Shown piece after piece: positions 10,280 through 37,826 of a DNA stretch of 64,000 nt. Made by a program: the position numbers and the translations under genes. This DNA comes from a virus (Duplodnaviria; Caudoviricetes), in IMG/VR virus record IMGVR_UViG_3300033066_001054. One strand, given 5' to 3'. The notes under the pieces were generated by a model, which was not told the DNA's origin, ran no database searches, and saw only the letters and a list, made by a program, of their open reading frames with translations. The stretch's first letter is position 1. Each line of letters begins with the position of its first letter.

Positions 10280-10304
10280 GCATCCGTGGAGGATACACAG
10301 AAAA

Positions 10305-11543
10305 ATGGCAGACCGCATATTTATCAACAAAGACTCAGGTCAATACAGTGAGCGAGAGCTCAATCGTATTGACTGGAGCCAGGTTCGAGACGGCATGCTC
10401 GAGGCTCGAAAGGCTGCGAATGCTGGCAAGAACCTAAACCCGTTCGGTATGGTTACCGGACTACTTGACACTAGACTGGCACAGTTTGAGGGAGATGAGA
10501 GTTTCGAATCTCCTGCAATGGGCATGCCAGAAGAGCCAAGCGACGAATCACGCATTCAAATGATTGCTGATGCAGTTGCAAGTGGACAAGACCTTGACAC
10601 AAAGGACGCACAGTTTGGTCTCGATAATGTTGAGGCCGTTGCAGCTAAAGCTGGCATGGAACCAGAAGCAGTTGCAAATACGCTTCAAGATTATGTTGGA
10701 CTCAACATGGACGAGGCTCCGATGGAAGAAGGCGGCGTAGATGAGTTCGCATCGGAAGATGGCGAGCCGGCTATGGAAACCTTCGCCTCTCGTATAGCTA
10801 AGAAGAAGTTGCCTGCTGCTTTGGAGAAATTCAAATTCAAGCAAAAGGGCGGCGATAATCCTGAAAAGCACGAGGACAAAGACAAAGAGGAAAAGGAAGA
10901 AGAGGACGACGAAGGTGCAGAAGCTATGCTTCGCAAGGGTGACGAGCGCAAGGCTGGTCGCAAAATCGTCTTCACAAACCCCGCTCAATTGAGCGCGGCC
11001 GCTGTTGAAGCTGCACGCGCCGCTGGTGACGAAGAGTTGGTTCGTGCAACATTGGCTGCACGTGCCGAACGACGAGTTGCCATTGGTCAACTTGCCGCTG
11101 AAGCAACCCTTGAGCAAATCACTCGAGAGGCAAAAAGCAAGCGCCGAGCCGCCACCGCAACCAAGGTGGAAAAACCAAAAGAGGTAAAAGCTAACGTGAA
11201 AACAGACAAAACAACAACCGGCGAAGACTTTGTCAAGCCCACAGAACTTAGCACTGGTCAAAAATCGGCGTTCGCAAGCAAGGCTCGTGAACTCGGTTTT
11301 CCTGAGAAGTACATCACCGCCTTGCTAGGCACCCGCAACGCAAACACCGTCACCGAAGATGACGTTCGACGCATTGCAGAAGGTCCTGGCAAATACCAAG
11401 AAAAGGTAGAGCGCGTGGCTTCTATGATTCGTGAAGCAAAGCTCGATGACGCTAATCGAAGCCGAATCGTCAAGTTCTGGGTTGAAGAACTCGGATACCC
11501 GGCTGACTACATCAGCAAGATGGTTGAAGATTACCAAGCGTAA
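10305..11543 (+). CDS. Hypothetical head-associated protein (acidic then basic low-complexity regions)
   Basis: 412-aa ORF with GGAGG Shine-Dalgarno, within the head gene block. Confidence 0.75.
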   Translation: MADRIFINKDSGQYSERELNRIDWSQVRDGMLEARKAANAGKNLNPFGMVTGLLDTRLAQFEGDESFESPAMGMPEEPSDESRIQMIADAVASGQDLDTKDAQFGLDNVEAVAAKAGMEPEAVANTLQDYVGLNMDEAPMEEGGVDEFASEDGEPAMETFASRIAKKKLPAALEKFKFKQKGGDNPEKHEDKDKEEKEEEDDEGAEAMLRKGDERKAGRKIVFTNPAQLSAAAVEAARAAGDEELVRATLAARAERRVAIGQLAAEATLEQITREAKSKRRAATATKVEKPKEVKANVKTDKTTTGEDFVKPTELSTGQKSAFASKARELGFPEKYITALLGTRNANTVTEDDVRRIAEGPGKYQEKVERVASMIREAKLDDANRSRIVKFWVEELGYPADYISKMVEDYQA

Positions 11544-11622
11544 CCTTTAACTCCACGATGCTATCTGGGCACAGATTCTGTCAACTGTGCCCAGAACCAA
11601 ACCAGACAGGCAGGAAAAACAA

Positions 11623-11838
11623 ATGTTGAAAACAAACAGAGTACAAAGGGTTGATGCAGGCAATATGAGTGCATTGGTTGAGGCTGTTAAAAAGCAGATG
11701 AGCAACCAAGGCGATGCTTTGAGCAAGGATGCCTCTAAACTATTAGACGGGCGCAATGGCTGTAATGGCTATAGTGCCGATGGCACGGCGCAACCCGCCA
11801 CAATGACTGGTAACGGCATTGTAATCTCAGAATTGTAA
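11623..11838 (+). CDS. Small hypothetical protein
   Basis: Fills the gap between co-oriented genes; AGGA upstream of ATG 11623 (the track starts it at 11587). Confidence 0.55.
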   Translation: MLKTNRVQRVDAGNMSALVEAVKKQMSNQGDALSKDASKLLDGRNGCNGYSADGTAQPATMTGNGIVISEL

Positions 11839-17692: not shown

Positions 17693-20600
17693 ATGTTACG
17701 AAAGGGCATATCAGGAAGCCTCATTGGGCGCAATCAAATAGAATTCATTGACCCTGCCGAGGCTCGGCGGGTAATCATTGCTGCCAAAAAGGGTAAACAA
17801 AGCCTGTACGCAGACCCATCAGATGTACTGAATCGAGACGTTGACGGCGATTTCGATTTGTTGAAAGAAATGAACGACCGCCAGGGATACAATCTCTTGT
17901 GGGTCAGATGCCGTGCAATTGACGCAGACACAGTCAACGCAAACGGCGATTACTTCTCAGCAGAAGAACTTCTTAAAGAAGTCATTCACAACGGCAAAAA
18001 GGTCCCGGCCTACAAAACATTTGAAGGCTGCCCAATCCACACCAATCATGATAACAAAGACATCATGAAGGCCAAGGGTGAGGTCGTCTATGCAGAGTGG
18101 GACGATAAAAACCAGTGCGTGTGGTGTACGTTCTACATCTCAGAAGACGCATACCCAGAGATTGCCAATGGTATTCGTATTGGTATGATGAGCGATGTCT
18201 CAATGGGATGCACGGTCGAAAGCGGCTTGTGTTCTGTTTGTGGCAAAGAAGCCGTTCGTGTTGATGACTACTGCGAGCACCTTAAGAAATACAAAGGCAA
18301 GAGATTGCCTGGCACGAACACTAAGGTATACGAAAAGAACAAGGGTATCAAGTTTATTGAACTTTCGCTGGTCAATGATGGCGCATTTGACAGTTGTGCA
18401 ATTAGCGAACTATACGACCAAGACGAGCTAACCCAAAAAGCGCTTGAACTCAATCGCAGAGTTGCAGAAATTCGAAATCATGTTTTGACCGCTGGTCATC
18501 TTACGGCCGGAATGACGCCATCTGTGCGCAACGCATATGAAGGCATGTTGAGAACTGTCGTCAGTACAACAACAACTGCTGTCAGAGTAGCACAGACGCA
18601 AGTAGACAATCCGCAATTGCTGGCCACTAATGGCGCAAATGCCAATTCTACCGTTGCTGGAATTTTGAAAGCACTGGGAATGGATGCTAGGCAACAACTC
18701 AATGTACTTGACTTGCTTAATGTTGCGCTTAACTTCCTAGAAGTGGCAATTATGCAAATGTTCACACGCAAAGACAATGTTGATTTGCAACATGTGTCAA
18801 AGATTGCCAAAGCGATGTCTGACCTTCAAGGCACAATGCAAGACCTGATTGATGACGGTGTTGATTCACCGGTCGGAGCAACAGCGGGTACTGGTGGTGC
18901 CGCAGGCACATTACTTAATCCAGGTGGTGGTCAAACAGGACAAGCACCTGCTGGTCAAACACCGGGGCAGCCAGCACAACCATATAGCCCGGCAGAAGGT
19001 GGTGTCGGACAAATGATGTCACCTGTTCAAGTGAGTGAAAGGTCATTCACTACTGAAAAACCACTCAACCCCTTACTTGGTGCAAGCAATAAACACCAAT
19101 TGGTATGGGCAAACAAGGATGGTTCAGAGGAGCGCGAAGTATACGCATCGCGAAAATCTGGCACCGATAATATAGAACGATTTGGTCAAAGTCTATTGGC
19201 TTTGGCCGAAAGCGTTGGGGCTGGCCCACTGGCGGCACCAATGTCCACACGTGCCGCTAATAACGAGCAACCAGTGAGAAGCACCAAGAAAGTGCAAAAC
19301 AACGGAGACACAACCAAGATGAAAAACCCATTCCAGAGAATCGCAAGCAAATTGCGTGAAAGGAAGCCACTCGAAGTCTCGTTCTCAGCAGAGGCTCACA
19401 GTCCTGATACCAACCACAGAATTGTAGTTTCAACGAGAGGAGATATTGAAGGCTACTATATGAACCGGCTCGCCAATTGGAAGCCGCAACTCAGCGACGA
19501 CATCATTAGTGCAATTGAACAAGAGAATCTTGATTTTGCGCTTCCTGTTTTAATGGAAGACTTCCAGAATCATGTTCGAACTGCACAAGCCAAAAACATT
19601 GACATTTGGTCAGATATTGACCTTGAGCCAGAAGGCGAAAAGGATGTCAAAGAAAACGCACTTGAGGGTGAACGACACCCAGTAAAGGGCGAAGGCGAAA
19701 TCATTGATAGCTATGTCAAGACAAAGCGAACAGAACCCGCTGGTGACAGAACCAGAGAGGATGAACTTGAAGCCAAAAGAACAGGCACGGATTCTAAGGT
19801 CAAAGAAGAGTTGCTCGAAAACGCTGGTCTGTATGCACGTCGAGACAATGGCCAGGAAGTACACGACTTCCTAGTTGACGACGCACGCTGTGGATGCCCC
19901 GACGAACATATTGAAGAGAGACTCAAGGGTCGACATGGTCGCAATGACAAGGTGGAAACACGCAAACTCGCAAGCAATATCGCTACCGAACTCGGTCGCG
20001 CCGCTTATGCTGCTCGCGTAACACCAGAAGAGATTATCGAAGTCTCTACAAAGATTGCACAACGAGAAGACCTTGAGGAACTAATCGCATTAGCATCTCT
20101 GGGTACAGATACTCGAGAGCGAACTGCTCAACGACACGCATTCTTTAACAACTCATCTGTAATGCTGGGTGCAGAGAACGCTATCTATCACGGTCTCGGC
20201 AAGATTGTCAGTGATGACATCAAAGCCGGCGACGTTGTCGATGGTCTTCGTGCAGTGATTAGTGAGCGAGAACTCGCTGGCAAATTGATTACTCGAATTG
20301 CCAAAACAATGGTTGAAAACTCACCAACAACTTATGCCGATGTTGTGGTCAAAGCATCTCGTGAAGAACAACTGCGAACTGCTTTGAATTCTCTTGCAGA
20401 TGGCGAGACTGAAACTAGTCGAGGTCATCTCAAGGCCGTGCTTTGCGCTCTAGCAGGAGCTGCAGACGAGTGCCAAGCCGCACCTGAAGAAGTTATCAAT
20501 GTGATTGCATCACGCAATCCTGGTGAAATCTTCGAAACACTCGGCATGTACAACAGCGCAAGTGCCCGAGAGGCACGCAAGACCCTTCGACAAAGAGAAG

Positions 20601-21949
20601 AGTTCTACGGCAAGCGAATGGCATCAAAGAAAGATGTCGAGAACACAGTGTTCGGCTGGATGTCAGATTTTGTCCACGATGGTCGAATCGACAGCTACGC
20701 ACTTGCTGAAGCCGCAAGCCTTCTTGGAGCACGACCTGTTGCTGCAACCAATTTGCTTGGTCGACTACTCGAGCGACAAGCAGCTATTTCGGTTACGGAT
20801 GAAAAATGCACAACCAAGAGGCTTACAGCCACTGTGAGTGACTTCGAAGACCTAGACCCCAAGTCAAGCGACTTCGACCAGCAGTTCAGAATGCGTGCAA
20901 TGGACATCTTCCGACAAGCTGGTTATGATGTTGACGATGGCACATTCAATCTTACGAGTTTGAGCGTTGACCAGTCTGGAAACATTCAAGCCGAGGTTTC
21001 TGCACGACTCACCAAGACATTCTGTGTCGAGGGAAGCACAGCAGGCGCAGGCATGGGCGTAGTAGACGACTTGCCAGTTGAGGCCACTATTGCAGAAAAT
21101 GCACCAATGGAAGACGAATCTGGCAATCTCTATACTGTTTCAGCCATGGATGTGCTTGGAATGGAGCGAACTGCTCAAGCCGCACCAGGAATGGGCGGTG
21201 CAATGGGCGGCGGAATGGGAATGCCACCAGCAGCACCAGCAGGCGGTGGTGTTGACCCATTAGCCGGCGCTGCTGACCCAATGGGTGGAGGTTTTGCCTC
21301 AATGACAGTGCCTAGCGAATCTGGGGCACCAGGAACCGAGGCTGTTGATAACCCTGCAAATGCAGACGATATGTCAGAGCCAGGCACCAAACAACCATGG
21401 GGAACCGTGTGTCCTGTTTGTGGTTCGAAGAATGTCAGCATTGCTAACGGCGAAGGCGAATGCCAGAGCTGTGGCACACAACTGAAGTTCAAGCTGATGG
21501 TCGAAGCCGCACCAAGCACAGATGATGCTGGTGGTGATGGTGAAGGCGCAGATGCTGGAATGGGCGATATGGGTGCAGATGCTGGAATGGGTGATATGGG
21601 CGCAATGCCTGGTGGCGATATGGGCGCAGCACCTCCAATGCCTGCAGGTGGAGCACCAACCGACCCAATGATGATGCAAGCAAGTTGGACAAGTTCGCCA
21701 TTGGTATGGCAACGATTTGCCTCGGCTGGACAAGGCGTTTCTGAAAAAGAAGCAGCTAAGGCCAGACAAGCAATGAAACAATTGCCAGTTGGCCATGTTT
21801 GCCCAGGTTGTGGCGACCGCGAACAAATCGAAAAGATTCGAAACAAGACCATTTGTACTGCTTGCGGTACGGTGGCTGTTTCCAAGGTCGCAGCAGTAGA
21901 AGGACAACCAAATCTGCTGTCCAACACCATCTACTGGATACTCGAATAA
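17693..21949 (+). CDS. Prohead (capsid maturation) protease with long C-terminal extension and Zn-ribbons
   Basis: N-terminal HK97/assemblin-type pattern NANGDYF..EEL...YKTFEGCPIHTNHD...VSMGC...FIELSLVNDGA; C-terminal CxxC pairs; lies between portal and MCP. Confidence 0.8.
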   Translation: MLRKGISGSLIGRNQIEFIDPAEARRVIIAAKKGKQSLYADPSDVLNRDVDGDFDLLKEMNDRQGYNLLWVRCRAIDADTVNANGDYFSAEELLKEVIHNGKKVPAYKTFEGCPIHTNHDNKDIMKAKGEVVYAEWDDKNQCVWCTFYISEDAYPEIANGIRIGMMSDVSMGCTVESGLCSVCGKEAVRVDDYCEHLKKYKGKRLPGTNTKVYEKNKGIKFIELSLVNDGAFDSCAISELYDQDELTQKALELNRRVAEIRNHVLTAGHLTAGMTPSVRNAYEGMLRTVVSTTTTAVRVAQTQVDNPQLLATNGANANSTVAGILKALGMDARQQLNVLDLLNVALNFLEVAIMQMFTRKDNVDLQHVSKIAKAMSDLQGTMQDLIDDGVDSPVGATAGTGGAAGTLLNPGGGQTGQAPAGQTPGQPAQPYSPAEGGVGQMMSPVQVSERSFTTEKPLNPLLGASNKHQLVWANKDGSEEREVYASRKSGTDNIERFGQSLLALAESVGAGPLAAPMSTRAANNEQPVRSTKKVQNNGDTTKMKNPFQRIASKLRERKPLEVSFSAEAHSPDTNHRIVVSTRGDIEGYYMNRLANWKPQLSDDIISAIEQENLDFALPVLMEDFQNHVRTAQAKNIDIWSDIDLEPEGEKDVKENALEGERHPVKGEGEIIDSYVKTKRTEPAGDRTREDELEAKRTGTDSKVKEELLENAGLYARRDNGQEVHDFLVDDARCGCPDEHIEERLKGRHGRNDKVETRKLASNIATELGRAAYAARVTPEEIIEVSTKIAQREDLEELIALASLGTDTRERTAQRHAFFNNSSVMLGAENAIYHGLGKIVSDDIKAGDVVDGLRAVISERELAGKLITRIAKTMVENSPTTYADVVVKASREEQLRTALNSLADGETETSRGHLKAVLCALAGAADECQAAPEEVINVIASRNPGEIFETLGMYNSASAREARKTLRQREEFYGKRMASKKDVENTVFGWMSDFVHDGRIDSYALAEAASLLGARPVAATNLLGRLLERQAAISVTDEKCTTKRLTATVSDFEDLDPKSSDFDQQFRMRAMDIFRQAGYDVDDGTFNLTSLSVDQSGNIQAEVSARLTKTFCVEGSTAGAGMGVVDDLPVEATIAENAPMEDESGNLYTVSAMDVLGMERTAQAAPGMGGAMGGGMGMPPAAPAGGGVDPLAGAADPMGGGFASMTVPSESGAPGTEAVDNPANADDMSEPGTKQPWGTVCPVCGSKNVSIANGEGECQSCGTQLKFKLMVEAAPSTDDAGGDGEGADAGMGDMGADAGMGDMGAMPGGDMGAAPPMPAGGAPTDPMMMQASWTSSPLVWQRFASAGQGVSEKEAAKARQAMKQLPVGHVCPGCGDREQIEKIRNKTICTACGTVAVSKVAAVEGQPNLLSNTIYWILE

Positions 21950-24830: not shown

Positions 24831-25691
24831 ATGAGCAACATCCGAAACGTATATGGCATTGACGAGCAAAACGAAGAGTTTCTCGCCGCCGCTATGGACA
24901 CCCCCGAAGGTCGCGTCGCATTAGCGCAAGCTATGGTTGAACCCATTAAGACATCTTTGATGTACCAAGGTGTAGGCCGCAAGCTGCTGATGGTTGACGA
25001 ACTGCCGCAGGGTGCCCTTCCTCGCTACGAGCGAGACATCGCAGTTAAGTCTTACGTAATGAGTAAGCGTGGTTCAGTTCCAACGTCTATCGTTGAAGCT
25101 GAAGAGTTGATGGTTCCGGTTCTTGAAATCGCTTGTAACCCAACCGTCAAGCTCAACGAAATCCGTGCCCGACGATTCTATATTGTCGACCGCGCACAGG
25201 TGAGGGCCAAGGACTCATTGCAGCGACAAGAGGACGCCGAAGTCTTCCGCGTTATCAACGCGGCTGTACCTTCAGCACACAACATCACGGTTACTGGTTC
25301 ACTCCAGCCCGAGAACATCAACCTCGCTCTGTCTCTCATTGAAGAGCACGAGTTGATTGGTGCCAAAATTGTTGTGCATCCTCAGCGCTACAAAGACATC
25401 CGAACATGGGGCAAGGAGTTCTATGATGAAGCGACAACTCGCGACATCTTGATGACCGGACTTTTCGGTCACTTGTACTCCGCTGACATTCACGTCAGCA
25501 CCATCGTTCCAAAGAACGCTGTCTACGTATTGGCACCGGCCGCCTTCGTTGGCGCCATGCCAGTCCGCCAGGACATCACCGTTCTTCCGAGCGACGACCC
25601 TCGACGACTCCGCCTCGGCTGGGTCATCTTCGAGGAACTTGGCTTCGCCGTTATCAACGACTACGCCACCGCTCGAATCATCGTTAGCTAA
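24831..25691 (+). CDS. Major capsid protein (compact HK97 fold)
   Basis: Strong AGGAG SD, C-ending codon bias, terminator directly after; spine-helix-like DRAQVRAKDSLQRQEDAEVF, A-domain-like IVVHP and GHLYSADIHVST, terminal GFAVIND...RIIVS. Confidence 0.85.
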   Translation: MSNIRNVYGIDEQNEEFLAAAMDTPEGRVALAQAMVEPIKTSLMYQGVGRKLLMVDELPQGALPRYERDIAVKSYVMSKRGSVPTSIVEAEELMVPVLEIACNPTVKLNEIRARRFYIVDRAQVRAKDSLQRQEDAEVFRVINAAVPSAHNITVTGSLQPENINLALSLIEEHELIGAKIVVHPQRYKDIRTWGKEFYDEATTRDILMTGLFGHLYSADIHVSTIVPKNAVYVLAPAAFVGAMPVRQDITVLPSDDPRRLRLGWVIFEELGFAVINDYATARIIVS

Positions 25692-25709: not shown

Positions 25710-25743
25710 ACAGGCCCCGCCATAGGCGGGGCCTGTTTTGTTT
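25710..25743 (+). terminator. Intrinsic terminator after MCP
   Basis: acaggccccgcc-ata-ggcggggcctgt followed by tttgttt. Confidence 0.9.
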
Positions 25744-25750
25744 GTATAAG
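25722..25750 (+). promoter_or_regulatory. Putative promoter for the MCP-fragment operon, ATAGGC-N17-TATAAG
   Basis: Near-consensus match overlapping the terminator; TATAAG lies 6 nt before in-frame GTG 25757. Confidence 0.5.
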
Positions 25751-25756
25751 GCTGAA

Positions 25757-25981
25757 GTGGTCGAAAAACAACATAATACAGAGTTGAATAATGGATTCTA
25801 TGACGCAGCGACACAGCGCGATATATTGAAGACAGGTTACTACGGTCATTTGTATTCAGCAAGTATACATGTTAGCACAATGGTTCCTAGAAACACTGTG
25901 GAAACTATGGATAGGGTGTTGCAATCAGAAGAACAGCGTAAGCAACTTTCTGATTACATGCGGTCGTGGTTGAAGAAATGA
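25757..25981 (+). CDS. MCP-fragment mini-protein A (MCP 197-231 plus YMR tail)
   Basis: FYDAATQRDILKTGYYGHLYSASIHVSTMVPRNTV vs MCP, 26/35 identical; tail LSDYMRSW. Start uncertain (the track gives TTG 25742). Confidence 0.85.
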   Translation: MVEKQHNTELNNGFYDAATQRDILKTGYYGHLYSASIHVSTMVPRNTVETMDRVLQSEEQRKQLSDYMRSWLKK

Positions 25982-26223
25982 GCAACGGCGAAATTATACT
26001 ACCAGGTGCCTTCGATGGCGCATTGCCGATGAGAGAAGACATAACGATTTTGCCAGCCACACCTGTGCCACGAGATAAACAGGGACTTGGCTGGGTGGTT
26101 TTTGAAGAAGTTGGTGAAGCAATAATCAACAACTATGCTATTGATAGAATAGTGGTCAGTAATCAAACTCAAGAAGATATCAAACGAGCGCTGGAAGAAT
26201 ACATGAGGAAATATGCAAGGTAG
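25978..26223 (+). CDS. MCP-fragment mini-protein B (MCP 236-286 plus YMR tail)
   Basis: PGAFDGALPMREDITILP (12/18) and LGWVVFEEVGEAIINNYAIDRIVVS (17/25) vs the MCP C-terminus; tail LEEYMRKY; ATGA overlap with A. Confidence 0.85.
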   Translation: MSNGEIILPGAFDGALPMREDITILPATPVPRDKQGLGWVVFEEVGEAIINNYAIDRIVVSNQTQEDIKRALEEYMRKYAR

Positions 26224-26434
26224 CAGTGAATCAAAACCATATAAGGCGTTTGGGCGCAAGCTGTTAATGGTTGACGAATTACCTCAGGGTGCATTAGCAA
26301 AATACGAGCGTGACGTACAAGTGAAATCGTATGTCATACCACGTCGTGGTGGTGTGCCCGGAGCTGTTTCAGAACCTTATGCACCAATTGACACACTCAA
26401 GGAATATATTAGGAAGTGGATGAGTAGTGGCTAA
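26213..26434 (+). CDS. MCP-fragment mini-protein C (MCP 49-84 plus YIR tail)
   Basis: GRKLLMVDELPQGALAKYERDVQVKSYVIPRRGGVP, 28/36 identical; tail LKEYIRKW. Confidence 0.85.
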   Translation: MQGSSESKPYKAFGRKLLMVDELPQGALAKYERDVQVKSYVIPRRGGVPGAVSEPYAPIDTLKEYIRKWMSSG

Positions 26435-26660
26435 AAACACAAATCAACAAAGAGAGGACCAAATAACAGCGGCGCTTAGCACCCCAGAAGGCAAGGCAGC
26501 ACTTCGTGCCGCGATGTCCGCGCCAATACAGACTTCGATAATGTATCAGAACATCGGCGCGAAACTGCTAATGGTAGATTCATTGCCAGACCCTTATGAC
26601 GAATATCCGAATGCCCGTGACGCTGTTAGCGATTACATGAAAAAATGGGTGCAAAAATGA
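26427..26660 (+). CDS. MCP-fragment mini-protein D (MCP 12-59 plus YMK tail)
   Basis: QQREDQITAALSTPEGKAALRAAMSAPIQTSIMYQNIGAKLLMVDSLP, 28/48 identical; tail VSDYMKKW. Confidence 0.85.
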   Translation: MAKNTNQQREDQITAALSTPEGKAALRAAMSAPIQTSIMYQNIGAKLLMVDSLPDPYDEYPNARDAVSDYMKKWVQK

Positions 26661-26851
26661 CCGCGAACCCACTGGCTAACATCAATGCAGCTCTCGAGGC
26701 ATTGGAACAACACGAATTGGCCGGCGCAAAAATCATCATTCATCCGAGCAGGTATGCCGATATTGAGCGATGGAGAAGAGAAGATGACGCCACAATACGC
26801 GAGCAGTTTAGCAAGTACATGCGAGGATATTTGGGTCAAGACATCAAGTAA
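26657..26851 (+). CDS. MCP-fragment mini-protein E (MCP 162-193 plus YMR tail)
   Basis: NINAALEALEQHELAGAKIIIHPSRYADIERW, 20/32 identical; tail FSKYMRGY; ATGA overlap with D. Confidence 0.85.
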   Translation: MTANPLANINAALEALEQHELAGAKIIIHPSRYADIERWRREDDATIREQFSKYMRGYLGQDIK

Positions 26852-27393
26852 TATTCAGAGACATCTTGACCCATGGCTGCTTCACATTTGTCAACAATTT
26901 TGACAATGTAGTCTGATATTCCTTTATGTTGCAATGAACTGAGTTTCGACATTTCACTGAGTGTGTATGTCATTTCTTTGAATGATTCCATACGTCGCTC
27001 ATCTTGTGCCAACATTTGTTGACCAATCAAAACACCGAACATCTGCGGGTCTTGGACCCCAAAATCCTTGCTGTGGTATTTGATTGTGTGAATAGACCTG
27101 ATTGCGTGTTCTGCATGCTCGAATTCTGTTAAACAACGAATTAAAGAGGTGTACAGTGCTGCCAATTCTCCAGTCATCTGCACTTCGCCAGACACCAACA
27201 CTGGCAATAGACTGTATTGGATTGTTCGAATACAGGCACTCATTTCAGCGTTGGGCTCGAATGCCATGTTCGATGGCATTTCGTCCGGGGACTCATTGAG
27301 TTGTTGCTGAATGGTCGACGTGTTATTGTCGATTCTCTCTTGCTCAATTCCCTGGATGTCGTCTGGAATACTTGCCTTTCTAAATCGTTTCAT
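26836..27393 (-). CDS. Hypothetical helical protein
   Basis: 185-aa ORF, ATGA-coupled to the upstream minus-strand gene. Confidence 0.7.
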   Translation of the reverse strand: MKRFRKASIPDDIQGIEQERIDNNTSTIQQQLNESPDEMPSNMAFEPNAEMSACIRTIQYSLLPVLVSGEVQMTGELAALYTSLIRCLTEFEHAEHAIRSIHTIKYHSKDFGVQDPQMFGVLIGQQMLAQDERRMESFKEMTYTLSEMSKLSSLQHKGISDYIVKIVDKCEAAMGQDVSEYYLMS

Positions 27394-27746
27394 TGTAGCG
27401 TCAATAGATACTTGAGTTTGTTCATTGCAGCAAGCATCTCATCCCTGAGATTAAGTAAGTCCGAATCTGATTGTTCAAACACATTGTTAAACTCTATCAG
27501 ATATTCAATGCAGTGACCGATGAACTCAATAGGTTCAACATTTACAGAAAGCGATATGCTCAATTTATCTTCGCGGATTCTGCTTTGGGATTTGCCCAAG
27601 TACACTTCGACAAATTCATCAACAAGTCCATCAAGTGCTTCGTAGGTTTTTCCAAACGCCTCGTGTTGCGCGAAACTTTTGGTCTGCCAGTGGAACACAC
27701 GAATTTGTTGTTGAATCGTGATGAGGTTTCCAATTAGCTGACTCAT
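27390..27746 (-). CDS. Ferritin/Dps-like four-helix-bundle protein (DUF5856-like)
   Basis: FHWQTKSFAQHEAFGKTYEALDGLVDEFVEVYLG...DLLNLRDEMLAAMNKLKYLLTL. Confidence 0.8.
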   Translation of the reverse strand: MSQLIGNLITIQQQIRVFHWQTKSFAQHEAFGKTYEALDGLVDEFVEVYLGKSQSRIREDKLSISLSVNVEPIEFIGHCIEYLIEFNNVFEQSDSDLLNLRDEMLAAMNKLKYLLTLQ

Positions 27747-27781: not shown

Positions 27782-28699
27782 TCAGACCATCGCAAGTTCT
27801 TTTGAATTCGGCAACGGCGTGTTCAAGGCTGATACGATTTCATCAGCGAAATTCTCTTTCGGTCTACACCAAGATGTGTGCTCGTAGTTGACCTTATTTG
27901 CGCTTGATTCGTATTTCTTTGGATTGTGCCTGAGCAAAAGTTTCTGTGCTAATAGTGTATCTGCTATTGGGATATTGGTTCCCATGTGTCCGCAAAATGC
28001 TTGTTCAACCTTATTCTTATCACCGAGGCGCAAAACGTTGCCATGAAGTGTATACAAAAGCCGGTATTTGATGCCGCATTTTGATACAACATCAAACCAT
28101 CCTTGCTTCTTCAGTGAACGCTTTTGCACTGGCGACAAGTGTTCCCAAAGCAAATGAATTGCTCGGTGAGTAGCCTTGGCCCGGAGCATTGCATTTCGCT
28201 CAATCTCTGCTTCACGTGCCCGACGTTGCTCTTCGAGTAATTCTCTCTCTTCCTCAGTGAGTTCTCGAGATGTAATCCCACCCAGCATTGCGCCGAAATA
28301 GTTCGATGTATCACTTGATGCAATGTACTGAAGCACCTGGCCCGAAGCAGTACACCCCTCAGCGGTACTGAGTATCAGATTTTGCAGTTCGGTATTTGAA
28401 CTGCCTGGCGTCATTGCCAGCCTCACTGACCAATATGGATAAGACCCTTCAGTGGCGGTGGCGGTTATGTTTTGAACTACATAATTGCAATTTGAACCAG
28501 TGATAACTCTTGTGTTAGCCAAAAGTTCAATTGCCGCAGTGTCGTCTACTTCAAATTCATATACAGCACTTAGGGTTGTATCGGTTCGATACGCGGTAAT
28601 TGCCGTGTTGCTCATAGTCGAAAGATGCACGCTATGGCTGGTTCCAGAAGTAGCGCAACCTGACCAATACAACCCAAGAGAGTTGTTTGTCGAGGGCAT
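27782..28699 (-). CDS. Hypothetical protein (S/T-rich N-terminus, coiled coil, basic C-terminal domain)
   Basis: 305-aa ORF, TAATG-coupled to the upstream gene. Confidence 0.7.
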   Translation of the reverse strand: MPSTNNSLGLYWSGCATSGTSHSVHLSTMSNTAITAYRTDTTLSAVYEFEVDDTAAIELLANTRVITGSNCNYVVQNITATATEGSYPYWSVRLAMTPGSSNTELQNLILSTAEGCTASGQVLQYIASSDTSNYFGAMLGGITSRELTEEERELLEEQRRAREAEIERNAMLRAKATHRAIHLLWEHLSPVQKRSLKKQGWFDVVSKCGIKYRLLYTLHGNVLRLGDKNKVEQAFCGHMGTNIPIADTLLAQKLLLRHNPKKYESSANKVNYEHTSWCRPKENFADEIVSALNTPLPNSKELAMV

Positions 28700-30504: not shown

Positions 30505-32952
30505 ATGGCAAGAGTTTCAGTAGAACACAGATTCACCGGAACAACAGGCCCAATTGATAGTCTTTCAGCACCTACAGTTAGCGTTACAAACATCGGTGCC
30601 ACCGGTGCCACGACATATGGATATCGAGTATCGGCTATCAACAGTGTTGGGGAAACATTGGCCTCGAGTACGGTAACCACCGCGACGGGCAACTCGTCAT
30701 TGACAGGGTCTAACTACAACAGAATTAGCTGGACTAGGGTAATTGGCGCGACAGGATACAAGGTTTACGGACGAACTTCTGGTTCCGAGTTGCTTATGGC
30801 AACCGTTACAACAGCAAATCATTATGATGACACAGGCGCGGTAACGCCATCTGGGGCATTGCCAAGTACAAACACCACAGGGTATTCGTCGTCTAGAACA
30901 TCTATTGGCACCCTGATGCGACAACAAACTGGCACTGCCGATATTGATAAATGGGTTGGCCCATTCCCTGTTGGAATCAGTCGACCCATGGAAGGCAGCA
31001 CTCAGATTCCAGGCATTATGCCGCATGTTATTAGGTGGAGTGGTGATATTGATTGGATTTTCTTGGCCGATAACGCCACCGCAACGACAAGTCGTAGAAT
31101 AGTATTCTACACATACACTCGGTCAACTAATACACTTGCATGGGAGGGCTTTGTCACAATTACCCATCCAAGCGGCACCAACGCCACTATACGTGGATTT
31201 AGAATGGTGTACGACACCTACACTACTGGAACAGTGAGCGTGACCGGAACATCGGTAACCGGAAGTGGTTCAGCTTGGTCAACAAACAGAATTGCTGTTG
31301 GTAGTCGGATTGGATTTGGTTCAACAGACCCAAACTATATTACAAGATGGTATGAAATCTCGGCTATTGGTTCTGACACGGGTATAACACTCGCCGTAGC
31401 GGTTGACGCAAGCGTTGCCGCAAACACACCATATGTCATAGAAGAACTTAGAGTAGTTATGGCTCAAACCAATAACACCGCAACTTCTGGTGGTTTGTTC
31501 GTAGCAAAGGGATTAAGGCCAGAGTTGTTTATCACCTCTGGCACTGCAATTGCGGCTGCTACAACCACCGACAATCAAAGAGCGTGTTATTGGCTTGCAG
31601 ACGCCTCTACTGTTACAAATACAACCTCTCTGGGATTTGGTCTCCAGGCTAAGACCTCATATACAGCACAAAACGTATATGTTTTGGATGGAACATCTGC
31701 ATGTAAGGTGTTTGTTTACAATATCAGGGCGTCATTAACTGGTTTAGCGTCTGGAAAATCAACTTCTGCTCTGTCTTTCTCAACTGGAACACAAACGCTT
31801 ACTGGAACGGCCGGCCAGGTAAATAATGGAAGAATGGGCACGCTGTCTCATGGCCCGGGTTCAGGTATTGAGTGCCTATATTTCTGCACTGGTACTCGTG
31901 TGTATCGAGCCAAAATTACAGATATTGTCAGCGGTTCAACTGTATGGATTTCAGACTGTATGGTTGAGATACCTACGGGTAGCGCAAGTACATATGCCGC
32001 AACCGGTGTGTTGAGCAGTGTGGAGGTAGCGGACTCATTAGACAGGTTAATTATTACTTCTACTGGTGCGTCCGGTGTGAGGCATTACGTTACAAAATAC
32101 CAAACCAATGTAGAACAATTCGATTTGATTTGGGGAGTTGACATAAAACAAATTGACCAAACACTTGCCGACGCCAATACACCGATTGTGCCAGGCAATA
32201 TTCTCGCTACACCATTTACCGTTTGGTCTGAGGCAGGATTAACATACTTGGCCCGCGTAGGCACTGCAGCCACAAACAATCATCTATACGTAGTTCCATT
32301 TGGGGCACATTGGGGATTTCAGTCTGCTGCGCCAACGCAGCGAGTTATCACTCCAGAAATCAGCACACCAAATTGTTTTATGTTTCACAGGGCATGTATG
32401 TCATTTGTGAAAAAACTAGGGGCTGATAAGTTTTCCATATCACCAGAACCAATCAAAATGTTCTATCGAACGAATGGAATTACGGACAATAGTGGTACAT
32501 GGTATGAACTTGATGACTATGCAGATTTATCCGGTGTTGCGCCATCTTCCAGTATACAGTTTATGTTTGAATTCAAAATCATAGGCAATTACTGTGTTCC
32601 AGGTAGGCTGCTGGGGTGTGAGGTTATGTACGAGATTGAAGACACATTGCCGTCACACCTTCAATGGAACCTTAACGATTCCAATAACTCTAATGGCACA
32701 GTTGGGTTTATTCAAAAATCCACTTATGGAAGTGTGCCCAATTTGGAAATCAACTACTATCGCTCAGATAACGATGTTAACTTACTCACGCAAGACAGTA
32801 CATCTAGCACATATGGAGCATTTGAGTATTGGACAGGTGCGGCATGGGCAGCAGGGCTAGGTTCTGATGCAGTTAACCAAAGAAGAAGATTTGTGCCATC
32901 ATCTGGATTGCCAGCAAGCACGAACGTCTACGCTAAAATCAAGGTGATATAA
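30505..32952 (+). CDS. Tail fibre/spike-like protein, paralogue 1
   Basis: T/S/G-rich; N-terminal FN3-like module; GTVSVTGTSVTGSGSAW motif; colinear with the next two genes. Confidence 0.7.
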   Translation: MARVSVEHRFTGTTGPIDSLSAPTVSVTNIGATGATTYGYRVSAINSVGETLASSTVTTATGNSSLTGSNYNRISWTRVIGATGYKVYGRTSGSELLMATVTTANHYDDTGAVTPSGALPSTNTTGYSSSRTSIGTLMRQQTGTADIDKWVGPFPVGISRPMEGSTQIPGIMPHVIRWSGDIDWIFLADNATATTSRRIVFYTYTRSTNTLAWEGFVTITHPSGTNATIRGFRMVYDTYTTGTVSVTGTSVTGSGSAWSTNRIAVGSRIGFGSTDPNYITRWYEISAIGSDTGITLAVAVDASVAANTPYVIEELRVVMAQTNNTATSGGLFVAKGLRPELFITSGTAIAAATTTDNQRACYWLADASTVTNTTSLGFGLQAKTSYTAQNVYVLDGTSACKVFVYNIRASLTGLASGKSTSALSFSTGTQTLTGTAGQVNNGRMGTLSHGPGSGIECLYFCTGTRVYRAKITDIVSGSTVWISDCMVEIPTGSASTYAATGVLSSVEVADSLDRLIITSTGASGVRHYVTKYQTNVEQFDLIWGVDIKQIDQTLADANTPIVPGNILATPFTVWSEAGLTYLARVGTAATNNHLYVVPFGAHWGFQSAAPTQRVITPEISTPNCFMFHRACMSFVKKLGADKFSISPEPIKMFYRTNGITDNSGTWYELDDYADLSGVAPSSSIQFMFEFKIIGNYCVPGRLLGCEVMYEIEDTLPSHLQWNLNDSNNSNGTVGFIQKSTYGSVPNLEINYYRSDNDVNLLTQDSTSSTYGAFEYWTGAAWAAGLGSDAVNQRRRFVPSSGLPASTNVYAKIKVI

Positions 32953-35396
32953 TGGGTAAGGTAGTGGTCGAATCAGTATTTAGCACTGCCTCTTTTGCGC
33001 CAATTGATACGATAGGCACGCCAACTGGTGTCGCAGTAACAAATGTTGGCACTGCAGGTGCTACAACATACGGATATCGAATATCTGCGGTTAATAGTGT
33101 CGGAGAAACACTTGCGTCATCAAGTACAACAACCACTACCGGAAATGCCGCCCTCAGTGCTTCTAACTTCAATAGGATTGCCTGGAGTCGAGTGATGGAT
33201 GCCGCGTCTTACAAGATTTATGGCAGGACTAATGGTTCAGAATTGTATATGGGCACCACAACTGGTCTGCATTTCGATGACACCGGTGCTGTTACCCCAT
33301 CTGGTGCTTTGCCTGGCTCAGATACGTCAAAATATGATTCAACAAAGGTGTGTATAGGTACGGCACTCGAATACCAGTCATCGGACAAAAGCGTTGGTCC
33401 ATTGCCCGTACAAATTGCTAGACCATCAGAAGGCAATATTCAAGTACCAATAAACTTTGTTACCGCAGTCACGTGGAGCAGCAATATTGATTGGATTTTT
33501 GGTGCTGACGCTGCAAGTGCTGCGGCCACAAGACGAATTGTCATGTTTGAATACAATCGGAGTACTGGTGTGCTTACGAGTCGCGGTTTTATCACACTTA
33601 CATACCCTCCTGCAACCAACCATACCATTCGAGGAATTGCTGTTGGATATGATGTGTACACCAAAGGTTCTGTGGCTGTCACTGGAACTGCTGTTACCGG
33701 CACTGGGTCTACATGGACAACAGACCGCCTGGCTGTGGGCAGTCGTATAGGATTTGGTTCTACGGACCCCTCTCAAATTACCAGATGGTATGAGATTTCT
33801 GCTGTTGGAACTGACACAAGTATTACGCTTACTGCGTCAATTGACGCCACCATTGCCGCTGGTTCAGCATATTGTATTGAAGACCTTAGAATTTACACAA
33901 CCACCACAAATGCCACATCAACCAACGGAGGACTGTTTGTGGTTAAGGGCCTAAAACCTGAAGTTTTTACCTATGCAGGAACTACAATATCAGCCGCTAC
34001 GAATGCCGATAGCATCCGTGCAGTTTACTGGCTGGCAGATGCGTCTACGGTCACTAATACTGGCTCGTGTGGTGCGTGCTTAGAAACCAAGGCAAGCTGG
34101 ACTTCACAATTTTTGTATGTTTTAGACAACGCATCAAATAGCAAGTTTTACAAATACAACGTGCGTGCCGCGCTTACGCCAGCATCTGGAAAAGATACAA
34201 CGTCTTTGAATTTACAAACAGGAACATCTGCTGTTACAGGAGTCATACAATCATTCAACAATGGTCGACTCGTAACAACGGGGCATGGGCCAGGAAGCGG
34301 TGCATCTTGCATATATTACACGACTGCTTCAAGGGTGTATAGAGCCGCTGTATCTGGTATCACTGCAGCAAGCACTACATTCAACAACGACAACATGACC
34401 GAGGTGCCGCCCGGTGGAACCAGTACATATGCTGCGACTTCGGCTATTCAGGGAATAGACTACATATATGGAATCGACAGATTTGCTGTGTACACCACCA
34501 GCAGCGGTTCTACACGCCATTATGTTACACAATACCAAACCGGCGGAAGTCAGTTTGATAGTATTTTCTCAGTAGATAGCAAGCAAATAGACCACACACT
34601 ATGCAACCCAGAGATGGCACCACCATCATTGGTTCAGAATACAAGTGTTAACGTGACGTCATTCACAAACTATAACACTACGTATTTTACTAAAGGCGGA
34701 GGAACTGGATTGCTGTCTTGGCTGTATACTTGTAATTTTGGCAGTGATTATGCATTTACGCATATTTCAGGCAACGACCAGTCTATCATAACACCAGAAA
34801 TGACATGTACTGGCAACGTGATGTTTTATCGTGTCTATGTCAATCACTTAAGAGCACATGGTTCAGACAAATACAACCATATACCTGCTGAACCTTTCAA
34901 AATCTGGTATCGCACTAGTGGTATTAGTGACAATAGCGGCGGGTGGACTTTGGTCCCTGCCGGGGGAGTGTTAACTGGTGTAACCGCAACCAGCTCTATT
35001 CAATTCAGAATACGATTCAAAACAATTGGGGCACATTGTCTCCCAACCAAGATATATGGCGTATGTGTTGTGTATGAATCCTCGGCTGATATGCCATCAC
35101 ACCTAAAATGGAATTTTGCTGATACAAATAACAGTACTGGTACTGTTGGATTTGTGCAATGTTGTTATTATGGCAGTGTCCCAAACTTACAAATTGACTA
35201 CTACAGAGCAGATACAGATGCTAACGTATTGTCCCAGGCTAGTACAAGTAGTACTAATGGTGTTTTTGAATATTGGGATGGTTCTGCATGGACGGCTGGT
35301 CTGGGTACAGATACAATTGATATACGACGCAGGTTTAGGCCAACGGCGTCGTTACCAACCGGTGTCAATGTCTACGCAAGGGTGAAGGTAATTTAA
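32952..35396 (+). CDS. Tail fibre/spike-like protein, paralogue 2
   Basis: Shares GSRIGFGSTDP, YWLADASTVTNT, HGPG and PSHL.WN blocks; TAATG coupling. Confidence 0.7.
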   Translation: MGKVVVESVFSTASFAPIDTIGTPTGVAVTNVGTAGATTYGYRISAVNSVGETLASSSTTTTTGNAALSASNFNRIAWSRVMDAASYKIYGRTNGSELYMGTTTGLHFDDTGAVTPSGALPGSDTSKYDSTKVCIGTALEYQSSDKSVGPLPVQIARPSEGNIQVPINFVTAVTWSSNIDWIFGADAASAAATRRIVMFEYNRSTGVLTSRGFITLTYPPATNHTIRGIAVGYDVYTKGSVAVTGTAVTGTGSTWTTDRLAVGSRIGFGSTDPSQITRWYEISAVGTDTSITLTASIDATIAAGSAYCIEDLRIYTTTTNATSTNGGLFVVKGLKPEVFTYAGTTISAATNADSIRAVYWLADASTVTNTGSCGACLETKASWTSQFLYVLDNASNSKFYKYNVRAALTPASGKDTTSLNLQTGTSAVTGVIQSFNNGRLVTTGHGPGSGASCIYYTTASRVYRAAVSGITAASTTFNNDNMTEVPPGGTSTYAATSAIQGIDYIYGIDRFAVYTTSSGSTRHYVTQYQTGGSQFDSIFSVDSKQIDHTLCNPEMAPPSLVQNTSVNVTSFTNYNTTYFTKGGGTGLLSWLYTCNFGSDYAFTHISGNDQSIITPEMTCTGNVMFYRVYVNHLRAHGSDKYNHIPAEPFKIWYRTSGISDNSGGWTLVPAGGVLTGVTATSSIQFRIRFKTIGAHCLPTKIYGVCVVYESSADMPSHLKWNFADTNNSTGTVGFVQCCYYGSVPNLQIDYYRADTDANVLSQASTSSTNGVFEYWDGSAWTAGLGTDTIDIRRRFRPTASLPTGVNVYARVKVI

Positions 35397-37810
35397 TGGC
35401 TAAAATTGCAGTAGAACATGTTTTTGGAAGTGCCACTGTACCATTAGTGCCACTCGAGGAACCAACCAATGTGTTGGTAACAAATTTTGGCACACCTGGT
35501 GCAACAACGTATACATATTACGTATCGGCATACAATACATATGGCGAAACTCTGGCCACAACAGCGATAACAACGACTGGTAACGGAACTCTTTCTGCAT
35601 CTAATTTCAATCGAATTTCATGGGATAAAGTGTGGGGTGCAACTGGATATTACGTTTACAATAGTTCTGGCGCATTTGCCCCAACTTCAAATTTACATTT
35701 TGATGACGTTGGTACTTCCTCAACAGCAAGAAGCCAACAAGAGTCAAACACCAGTGGATATAACTCACTGTATACATCTGCTGGCACGTTGATGTATCAA
35801 TCAGGAGGGGCCATTGGTCCAATGCCAGTTAAGGTTGCAAGACCGATGGGGCAATCAACGGCATTTCAGTGCGCATTTCCTTCTGTTGTATCATGGAGTC
35901 CTACGGTTGATTGGGTGTTTTTAATTGAAGGTAGTGCGGCGGCGGCGACGAGGCGGGCGATGCTTTACGAATTTGACCGCAGTACAGATGCGTTTACATG
36001 GAAGGGTTATGTCACATTAACATTTCCAACAGCTACAAACCATACAGTTCGCGGCTTTGCAATGACCTATGACATATATGCCACCGGTACTGTGAGTGTA
36101 TCTGGAACGGCAGTTACTGGTTCTGGCACCGCTTGGTCTACAAGTAGGCTTGCGGCAGGTTCGCGTATTGGATTTGGCTCAACAGACCCCAATCAAATTA
36201 GTACATGGTATGAAATCTCAACCATTGGTTCCGACACAAGTATAACCTTAACAGCAACTGCTGGTACAATATCGGCCAATAGTGTATATTGCATCGAAGA
36301 CTTAAGAGCGGTTGTTTCAACCACTAACGCTACTGCGGCCAATGGCGGATTATTTGTAGCCAAGGGACTGAAGTATGAGAACTTTGTGTCGGGCGGCACC
36401 ACTATTTCAGCGGGCGTGTCGACAGATAATGTGCGTGCTGTATTTTGGCTTGCTGATGCCAGTACAGTAACAAATACCGTTGCTTGTGGCAATGCCGTAT
36501 CTGACAAAACAGATTGGAATACTCAATATTGTTACAGTATAGATACAACAGCAACACCAAAAGTATACAAGTATAACTTACGTGCTTCTTTATCTGGTTT
36601 GTCCTCTGGTAAATCAACATCAGCACTTGTTTTGATAACCGGAACTCAAACAGTTACTGGCACTACCTCTCAACAAAACAATGGCGAAGTAGTTGTGGCA
36701 AATCACGGACCCGGAAAGGATATTGAGTGCCTTTATTTCGTTACTACAACACGCGCCTATAGGGCAAAAACATCAGAAATTGTCAACGGCTCTACGGTGT
36801 GGATTGCAGACTGCTATGTAGAAATCCCGCCAGGTGGCACCAATACATTCGCCGCCACATCTGCGCTAGGATACATTGAACACACTGATTTTATGGATGA
36901 TTTTGTGGTGTATTCAACTGGTGCGACTTCTTTTCGTAGTTATATTACAGATTATGCTTCTGCCATTTATCCTTTTGAGTCAATGCTTGGTTATGACACT
37001 AAGCAATTAGACCAATCTGGCGCAGATGCAAATTCAGCTCCGCACCCTTCAATTGGTGTTTCTCAATTGGTTTCGTGGAATGAAGAAGGGATGCACTACG
37101 TTTTAAGGCAAAACTCTTCATCCACACTAAATCAATTGTATGCAGTACCGCTTGCTGCATGTTATACTCACGCATGGGAAAGCGGTCGTGAACAATATGT
37201 TATCACGCCAGCTCTGCCAACCCCAAATGGGGCGACTTTGTATCGAGCATATGCCAATACCCTTTTGGCGCACGGCGGCACAGATGCGTTAATGGTTGAG
37301 GCCGAACCTGTTAAAATATGGTACAGAACCGAAGGAATATATGATAACTCTGGTGTGTGGTACTTATTATCGGATAACGGTGATTTAACTGGTGTAAAGA
37401 CCGGCAAAGACATTCAATTTAGGCTTGCATTTAAGGTTATTGGCGGGCATCAACTGCCATCTAAAGCATATTCTGTTTGTGTGGTTTACGACACTGATAC
37501 AGATTTGCCATCACATTTACAATGGAATATGGGAGACACAAATTCAAGCACTGGCATTGTTGGTTTTATTCAAAAAGGAACTTACGGAAGCGTACCCAAT
37601 TTGCAAATATCATACTATCGTTCAGATAACGACCAGCTTATCTTAACCCAGGCAAGTACCGGTTCTACTTATGGTGCATTTGAGTACTGGAATGGTTCTT
37701 CGTGGGCATCTGGACTTGGTACTGACACCAACGGAATACGTCGAAGGTTCAACCCAACCATAGGTATCTTGACAGGAATTAACGTATATTGTAAATTGAA
37801 GGTGGTGTAA
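35396..37810 (+). CDS. Tail fibre/spike-like protein, paralogue 3
   Basis: Same conserved blocks; TAATG coupling. Confidence 0.7.
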   Translation: MAKIAVEHVFGSATVPLVPLEEPTNVLVTNFGTPGATTYTYYVSAYNTYGETLATTAITTTGNGTLSASNFNRISWDKVWGATGYYVYNSSGAFAPTSNLHFDDVGTSSTARSQQESNTSGYNSLYTSAGTLMYQSGGAIGPMPVKVARPMGQSTAFQCAFPSVVSWSPTVDWVFLIEGSAAAATRRAMLYEFDRSTDAFTWKGYVTLTFPTATNHTVRGFAMTYDIYATGTVSVSGTAVTGSGTAWSTSRLAAGSRIGFGSTDPNQISTWYEISTIGSDTSITLTATAGTISANSVYCIEDLRAVVSTTNATAANGGLFVAKGLKYENFVSGGTTISAGVSTDNVRAVFWLADASTVTNTVACGNAVSDKTDWNTQYCYSIDTTATPKVYKYNLRASLSGLSSGKSTSALVLITGTQTVTGTTSQQNNGEVVVANHGPGKDIECLYFVTTTRAYRAKTSEIVNGSTVWIADCYVEIPPGGTNTFAATSALGYIEHTDFMDDFVVYSTGATSFRSYITDYASAIYPFESMLGYDTKQLDQSGADANSAPHPSIGVSQLVSWNEEGMHYVLRQNSSSTLNQLYAVPLAACYTHAWESGREQYVITPALPTPNGATLYRAYANTLLAHGGTDALMVEAEPVKIWYRTEGIYDNSGVWYLLSDNGDLTGVKTGKDIQFRLAFKVIGGHQLPSKAYSVCVVYDTDTDLPSHLQWNMGDTNSSTGIVGFIQKGTYGSVPNLQISYYRSDNDQLILTQASTGSTYGAFEYWNGSSWASGLGTDTNGIRRRFNPTIGILTGINVYCKLKVV

Positions 37811-37826
37811 TTCACCGGGACAATAA

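Follow-up and report, generated by a model that had tools for sequence, protein, structure and literature searches.

The 64,000-nucleotide stretch of viral DNA considered here (IMG/VR record IMGVR_UViG_3300033066_001054; the whole stretch is referred to as the window) comes from a megaphage that is a relative of Bacillus phage G. Behind its major capsid protein (MCP) gene lies an array of five small same-strand reading frames (25757-26851), designated mini-genes A to E, each of which encodes a piece of the MCP followed by a linker and a short shared tail, with starts that overlap the preceding stops. With a probability of about 0.6, the array is read as an old, vertically inherited accessory operon of phage G-like megaphages, whose five coupled mini-genes encode capsid-interface mimics that serve in conflict. 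The evolutionary account within this reading, an old duplication and purifying selection, is very probable, and interface mimicry in conflict is put forward tentatively. The array is a real, selected phage gene set of which, as far as was found, no description has been published for phages. A preliminary description of this DNA had dealt with 25796-26350, which runs from the first MCP-like codon of gene A to a point inside gene C, and had noted that the capsid fragments differ from the resident MCP mostly at synonymous sites; it offered as explanations either long purifying selection on the peptides or capture from the MCPs of other related phages. The mostly silent differences reflect ancient copies, in which synonymous sites are saturated, and purifying selection on the peptides since then.

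The mini-proteins are derivatives of the MCP family and not members of it that are able to form a shell, each of them holding only 33-56 MCP residues and never a complete HK97 fold. As delimited by local protein alignment (Table 1), the fragments tile MCP residues 10-89 and 161-286 with little overlap, and residues 90-160, which include the spine helix (108-145), are covered by no mini-protein; the pairwise alignment of E continues into MCP residues 195-215. Judged by sequence comparison, the MCP homology of the fragments lies beyond chance: B (E 6e-4), D (E 6e-6) and E match the family phrog_2522 on their own, and in a tblastn comparison of the mini-proteins with a relative's MCP all five match MCP genes (E 1e-13 to 1e-17). 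A Pfam search with the mini-proteins gave no family match except one at chance level, and a DNA search of GenBank phages with the locus found nothing.

Gene A, from which an in-frame ATG is absent, probably starts at GTG 25757 (or TTG 25742). The ATG of B overlaps the stop of A, as the ATG of E does the stop of D (ATGA in both cases), C starts 11 nucleotides (nt) ahead of the stop of B, the GTG start of D overlaps the end of C, and the 3' end of E overlaps a convergent gene by 16 nt. The start of gene A differs in the orthologous array of a metagenomic contig, L052, where a 1-nt difference in a G/C-rich run (window 25791-25841, L052:1945-2000) gives an in-frame ATG; the window frame with the MCP-like residues offers no start other than GTG or TTG. 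All five mini-proteins carry, after the linker and 2-6 residues ahead of the stop, the tail motif hydrophobic-x-x-Y-[MI]-[RK]-x-[WY], with a tail hydrophobic moment of 0.32-0.81. Over the six frames of the whole window this motif occurs 5 times, each time at the end of a mini-gene, and in the 478,840-base-pair (bp) genome of a near relative in IMG/VR (G001, a contig with terminal repeats) it stands at a protein end once only, in a remnant of gene E. There is no sign that the tail is a mobile cassette, because the five tail-coding segments share little DNA beyond the motif core.

Counts from local protein alignments turned into codon alignments (216 aligned codons over the five fragments) give 135 residues identical to the resident MCP, only 54 of which keep the same codon. 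The individual cases in the preliminary description were borne out: in a 14-residue stretch of fragment C (26255-26296, against MCP gene positions 24978-25019) 5 of 14 codons are changed (CTG>TTA twice, CCG>CCT, GCC>GCA, CTT>TTA) with 0 amino-acid changes, and in fragment A, where roughly half of the conserved residues had been said to be recoded, 26 of 35 aligned residues agree with the MCP, 15 of these 26 being encoded by another codon. Differences spread evenly over the codon positions, which would have spoken against the pattern, are not what is seen (74, 46 and 141 at positions 1, 2 and 3; chi-square 54.8, p = 1.3e-12). By the Nei-Gojobori method, the synonymous divergence from the MCP (dS) is saturated, and so undefined, in every fragment, with a nonsynonymous divergence (dN) of 0.17-0.43. 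Such a silent-site excess is expected under purifying selection and under capture alike. Because the MCP branch is itself under strong purifying selection, the comparison of fragment and MCP says little about the fragment, and orthologous fragments were therefore sought. As a general caution, a silent excess between a fragment and its parent is not in itself proof of selection on the fragment; a comparison of orthologous fragments is.

At the DNA level the fragments are 54-70% identical to the MCP gene, and the best-matching pair with the resident gene extends over 86 nt at 72% identity, the longest exact run readable there being 12 nt. The earlier suggestion that recoding limits recombination with the essential MCP gene would fit these values. 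They also bear on the idea that the fragments are silent donor cassettes, templates for conversion of the MCP gene in the style of pilin or vls systems. The array does consist of partial copies beside the expressed gene and on the same strand, but with such low identity and so short an exact run, with start codons of their own, overlapping stops and starts and a selected non-capsid tail on every unit, and with an MCP that is identical or 1 residue different while the arrays differ widely, a donor role is hardly credible. A candidate patch of recent conversion at the 5' end of gene A was rejected; its best DNA match is in the resident clade, at only 75% over 48 nt, and the remainder of the gene matches at least as well.

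A search for short proteins with words in common with the MCP led to an orthologue of C (P0101) on the 4.8-kilobase (kb) contig L052, which carries the whole array behind an MCP gene with an identical protein. A search with D gave 12 further orthologues, and arrays or partial arrays occupy the same slot in L086, L087, L088, L089, L090 and L091; scans of IMG/VR with mini-proteins E and B found no additional array. In total there are at least 8 arrays (the window and at least 7 metagenomic phage contigs), with the five types in constant order and reading frames intact in all eight. Over all pairs with unsaturated dS, dN/dS is 0.06 to ~0.5 and mostly 0.1-0.3 for each of the five mini-genes, at dS values from 0.1 to saturation (Table 1 gives those for the window and L052). 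Lineages in which silent sites are saturated still keep cores and tails; the aligned D tails hardly vary, in contrast to the linkers. Because cores and tails are conserved where dS is saturated and dN/dS is mostly 0.1-0.3, selection acts on the mini-proteins themselves, tail included. The calculation of dN/dS that had been recommended, when made between orthologous arrays, upholds long purifying selection on the peptides, the non-capsid tail among them; against the MCP, dS is saturated in every fragment.

Orthologues of A are present in L052, L086, L090 and L091, and in the last three the N-terminal part of the gene product is far less MCP-like. In B, the loop ahead of the P-domain hairpin (window 26028-26100) differs in length and sequence in every orthologue between conserved flanks, and is a candidate site of diversifying selection.

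Table 1. Mini-genes and neighbouring features of the window, with dN/dS and dS for the window compared with L052 (aa, amino acids).
Feature	Position	Strand	Description	dN/dS	dS
Mini-gene A	25757..25981	+	MCP-like 25796-25900 = MCP residues 196-231 (A-domain helix and strand); linker; tail motif 25946-25969	0.23	0.51
Mini-gene B	25978..26223	+	MCP-like 25993-26160 = MCP residues 232-286 (P-domain hairpin and C-terminal strand); tail motif 26191-26214	0.12	1.07
Mini-gene C	26213..26434	+	MCP-like 26240-26374 = MCP residues 44-89 (last N-arm helix and E-loop); tail motif 26396-26419	0.11	0.51
Mini-gene D	26427..26660	+	MCP-like 26442-26588 = MCP residues 10-59 (N-arm helices); tail motif 26625-26648	0.15	0.64
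Mini-gene E	26657..26851 (alternative ATG 26645)	+	MCP-like 26678-26776 = MCP residues 161-194 (A-domain helix, strand, helix); tail motif 26807-26830	0.09	0.38
Resident MCP gene	24831..25691	+	286 aa, HK97 fold, without delta domain	0.011	0.145
Intrinsic terminator-like hairpin and T-run	25710..25746 (hairpin itself 25710-25736)	+	12-bp stem, 10 G-C pairs		
Convergent conserved 185-aa gene	26836..27393	-	Right edge of variable slot; function not assigned		
DUF5856 gene	27390-27746		Next to convergent 185-aa gene		

The intact frames, dN/dS well below 1 and tails conserved across lineages with saturated silent sites also stand against the view that the array is a set of functionless, decaying by-products, partial MCP duplications produced by break repair near a homing-endonuclease site. 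An endonuclease-like gene does occur in the same slot (L061, L090, L091) and could explain the first origin of partial copies, and the remnant of E in the relative L001 is clearly decaying. For the present state of the array this view is largely refuted and very improbable; as an account of origin it is possible.

The codon usage of the array had been contrasted with that of the MCP, the latter preferring C-ending codons and the fragments A/T-ending ones. This contrast holds (C-ending codons 0.40 in the MCP vs 0.18 in the array) with the exception of gene E. Over 41 genes of the window the G+C content at third codon positions (GC3) has a mean of 0.44 (standard deviation 0.05); the MCP gene is at the top of the 41 with 0.60, followed by the neighbouring decoration-like gene with 0.53, and the array has 0.43 (gene E 0.54). 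The A/T-ending preference of the array is not a foreign signature, because its GC3 is typical of the genome and the MCP gene is the outlier. The contrast is the codon bias of a very highly expressed gene, a bias that helps explain the low dS of the MCP between strains, and it carries a second caution of method, namely that a codon-usage contrast may stem from the parent gene as the outlier.

The source of the copies was sought in an alignment of 128 MCPs (120 database clusters at 68-99% identity, the loci and phage G), with the fragments placed on a fixed backbone. P-values of the approximately unbiased (AU) test in per-branch placement were erratic (1e-31 for 4.7 log-likelihood, lnL, units), and likelihood differences and weight ratios were used; the constrained searches were fast and give bounds only, free placement having scored below the resident-sister constraint for A and E. 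With two arrays only, each of the five fragment pairs is placed within the 68-100% clade at the end of a long stem (0.5-1.4 substitutions per site), and the likelihood weight is diffuse over many branches, that of the resident clade being 0.004-0.08 vs 0.085 expected if even. Placement inside the resident clade, after its split from the 86%-identical P0111 lineage, is 7-11 lnL units worse for A, C and D. When all orthologues are added, a sister position to the resident clade does equally well or better for A, D and E, and for B and C it costs ~4.3 lnL units, both as bounds. The per-fragment phylogeny that had been proposed as the arbiter between old duplication and capture therefore resolves neither outcome; placement is diffuse, and a position as sister to the resident is compatible with it.

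Recent copying of today's resident gene is excluded, because the fragments are without the resident's own derived residues: of the 29 sites at which the resident differs from the family consensus, 14 have the consensus residue in the fragments, 3 the resident's and 12 neither. The copies predate the recent changes of the resident lineage and have since evolved under constraints of their own. Among 122 near-invariant MCP columns, 91 are kept by the fragments and 31 are changed, with such changes in every fragment, and the best identity of any fragment to any of the 128 MCPs is 59-81%.

Capture would mean that each fragment was taken from a different competitor's MCP gene, so that the array records, and perhaps targets, past competitors. 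In line with this, the fragments side with the consensus over the resident by 14 to 3 at the resident-divergent sites, many other MCPs are nearer to C and D (up to 80% and 65%) than the resident is (67% and 57%), and the analysis limited to two arrays places B and C best outside the resident clade. Yet the five types and their order are constant in at least 8 arrays with partly saturated silent sites, and no new capsid cassette has appeared in any of them. No near-identical donor was found among the 128 MCPs, and no sampled MCP is close in DNA, the best-matching stretch to the resident gene being the 86 nt above and the 48-nt patch of gene A reaching at most 75%, with resident-clade genes best. 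The likelihoods shift as noted when more orthologues are included, and neither DNA repeats nor any other acquisition signature was seen between the units. E adjoins A at residues 194/196, and A adjoins B at 231/232, inside a predicted strand, which suggests that one copy was cut up and favours a single origin over independent captures. There is overlap between C and D, and L091 has an orthologue of C that extends over both regions (MCP residues 10-87, local alignment), which suggests a duplication inside the array. A CRISPR-like recording device would show strain-specific added units and near-identical donors, and neither was found; the changes seen were deletion, a chimera and replacement by non-capsid sequence. 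The array is a fixed set and not a growing record, and the notion of a record of competitors, as raised in the preliminary description, is improbable.

On the preferred account of an old duplication, the array has been inherited as an accessory element, accessory because a close relative has deleted it. This relative, L001, has an upstream identity of 91.5% and an MCP with 1 of 286 residues changed, and it is without window positions ~25754-26738, only a decayed 3' third of E being left. The slot is bounded on the left by the terminator-like hairpin that closes the MCP gene, which is kept in L001 and L052, and on the right by the convergent 185-aa gene; the neighbouring genes are the same around every array and in every array-less relative. 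In L061 (MCP 99% identical) the slot holds a gene for a 433-aa helix-turn-helix (HTH) protein with a weak, sub-threshold LAGLIDADG-like match (L061:3240-4541) and no array beside it. A homologue of this gene lies upstream of the array in L091 (1-972) and L090 (2-310), and the protein may be a free-standing homing endonuclease that drives exchange at a hot spot. L058 (MCP 86% identical) has an unrelated 177-aa gene in the slot. L090 has a B-type tail on the core of A, apparently through recombination between tails, and an unrelated 82-aa frame in place of B. The array thus changes by deletion, tail-to-tail recombination and replacement. Between the window and L052 the flanking conserved genes have dS of 0.15-0.26 and the array 0.4-1.1, array dS between strains amounts to 3-7 times the value for the MCP gene, and strains whose arrays differ widely have MCPs that are identical or 1 residue apart. 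Mosaic accessory hot spots of phage genomes usually hold conflict genes, and the slot would be a hot spot of this kind. Beside the pair formed by the 185-aa and DUF5856 genes, a 305-aa gene (window 27782-28699, minus strand) that is absent in L001 forms a second accessory island (window vs L052 dS 1.47, dN/dS 0.09).

The loss in L001 and the state of the slot likewise weigh on the alternative that the array is a part of the phage's own head, in which the five mini-proteins would join through their shared helices into a stoichiometric complex that builds or decorates the capsid, such as an assembly cofactor or a vertex-associated piece. The translational coupling of the five genes suggests equal dosage, the genes follow immediately on the head-gene block, the tail forms an amphipathic helix, and the fragments tile the two MCP regions with little overlap, all of which this alternative would accommodate. 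Against it, a relative with an MCP that differs at 1 of 286 residues lives without the array, which shows that the capsid can do without it. In addition, the slot is hypervariable, gene B has been swapped for an unrelated gene in L090, and the rate at which the array evolves is several-fold that of the head genes. A structural role in the capsid is therefore considered unlikely.

How the array would serve in conflict is suggested by the parts of the capsid protein that it retains. Mapped on an AlphaFold model of the MCP (mean predicted local distance difference test score, pLDDT, 71.7), D would comprise the N-arm helices (10-53) and C the last N-arm helix and the E-loop (57-90); E would comprise a helix (160-171), a strand (179-182) and a second helix (184-191), A a helix (200-209) and a strand (219-222), and B a hairpin (247-271) and the last strand, while the omitted residues 90-160 are predicted to form the core of the fold, made up of the spine helix and a strand of the P-domain. 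It is the retained elements that, in HK97-type shells, extend to adjacent subunits. The mini-proteins might present these contact-making elements as free peptides and bind whatever the elements normally bind in the MCP. Their targets could be the capsid subunits of co-infecting related phages, which would result in a dominant-negative interference with assembly, or host sensors that recognise capsid protein, for which the peptides would serve as decoys; the shared amphipathic C-terminal helix might be a common handle or stabiliser. The decoy variant has its premise in the finding that host immunity senses MCPs (PMC9712102; bioRxiv 10.64898/2026.01.04.697583). In its most specific form, in which the five tagged contact elements poison the assembly of related phages or blind host sensors and the resident MCP escapes by having drifted from the consensus at these places, the proposal is doubtful. 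A complex prediction for the MCP with mini-protein C, both entered as alignments, scored 0.29 against a mark of 0.32 in a single run, a value that counts neither for nor against binding.

Several observations weigh against reading the array as an old operon of interface mimics. Mimicry of the resident MCP is imperfect, with a protein identity of 55-74% between fragments and resident. Profile comparison of the tail with the MCP family showed no similarity that would explain its origin. Some pairwise dN/dS values on these short genes reach ~0.5, from little-diverged pairs, and the tree alone does not separate an old internal duplication from an old capture. The model of D, built from 12 orthologues, has helices only (the tail as helix 63-75), no compact fold and a low confidence (mean pLDDT 55.7), and the loss in L001 marks the array as dispensable. 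That loss has a useful side, in that natural array-plus and array-minus relatives with near-identical capsid proteins make the purpose of the mini-genes directly testable.

The resident MCP itself matches the major head protein family phrog_2522 (E 3e-68) and chain A of PDB 6wkk, the Gp27 major capsid protein (E 1.5e-89), and is 48.6% identical to gp27 of Bacillus phage G. The G001 genome carries 2 distant MCP-like paralogues of ~25% identity (304419-305012 and 211087-211530), one of them a shortened frame of ~178 aa. Elsewhere in the head region of the window, a 1418-aa protein (17693-21949) contains long low-complexity repeats rich in Gly, Ala, Met and Asp and has 2 weak zinc-ribbon-like matches at its C-terminal end, and a 638-aa acidic scaffold-like protein is encoded downstream of it. 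Four tandem paralogues of ~805-825 aa each, with DNA cross-similarity, occupy 30505-40304, with a related block in L001, and are probably fibre or receptor-binding paralogues.

The design found in the array recurs independently in a distant relative, L037, whose MCP is 62% identical. There, pieces of the phage's own MCP occur in up to four small to medium open reading frames (ORFs) 2-6 kb downstream (L037:8979-12356), the clear cases being 10187-10381 and the C-terminus of 11091-11723. They lie in an A/T-rich block downstream of the head genes and without the present tail, and have conserved residues with saturated or near-saturated silent sites. Among 43 MCP loci, extra MCP pieces within 6 kb were seen in L037 only. 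Five proteins of other megaphages (P0055, P0060, P0077, P0081 and P0089; 88-152 aa) have an N-terminus like a twin-arginine signal, with Pfam matches below threshold, fused to an N-arm/E-loop piece (twice in P0077); the genes of P0060 (L056:8001-8381) and P0077 (L057:8001-8459) stand among nucleotide-metabolism genes, far from head genes. The array shows that parts of a virus's most conserved structural protein can be made into genes of their own that are kept by selection.

Among known systems, the Gol peptide of the phage T4 capsid protein gp23 activates the Lit protease together with EF-Tu. It resembles the mini-proteins as a short internal MCP piece that is active alone, and in being read by a host defence; unlike them, it is a region of the full-length protein and not a separate gene, and free Gol switches the defence on. 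We know of no phage that encodes Gol as a tagged mini-gene. Small proteins encoded close to an HK97-fold shell gene also bear short terminal tags in two other cases, the capsid-targeting sequence (CTS) of T4 internal proteins and the cargo-loading peptides of encapsulins, but those tags are common to various cargo proteins, whereas the present tail occurs only on the five mini-genes of the window.

Literature searches found no phage capsid-fragment genes in print, the nearest case, as far as the passages on it go, being a gene set of Bodo saltans virus (PMC5871332), in which ankyrin-repeat ORFs carry 5' fragments of essential viral genes and a decoy role was proposed as a hypothesis (Deeg et al. 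2018, PMC5871332). As presented in those passages, both sets consist of tandem small to medium ORFs that join a fragment of the virus's own essential protein to a shared module, here five genes of an MCP piece and a tail. Bodo saltans virus, in contrast, is described there as a eukaryotic giant virus, with an ankyrin-repeat domain as the shared module and fragments of catalytic domains, e.g., of DNA polymerase and MutS, while the present array belongs to a tailed phage, has an HK97-fold capsid protein as its source and a ~12-residue helix as its module, and forms a fixed five-gene operon; the same passages (PMC5871332) describe no selection analysis and no fixed tiling set.

The mode of action proposed here is shared by the fragments of the FragFold study, in which engineered protein fragments, tested in E. 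coli, inhibit their parent or its partners by re-using native interfaces (PMC10769210). Looked at for such interfaces, the mini-proteins keep the 91 of 122 near-invariant MCP columns already mentioned and, on the model, would consist of peripheral contact elements. The FragFold fragments are laboratory constructs, and the mini-genes are natural, conserved genes known from sequence. If the proposed action is true, the array would be a protein-level interference system made from the virus's own structural gene, and would be a natural counterpart of engineered inhibitory protein fragments.

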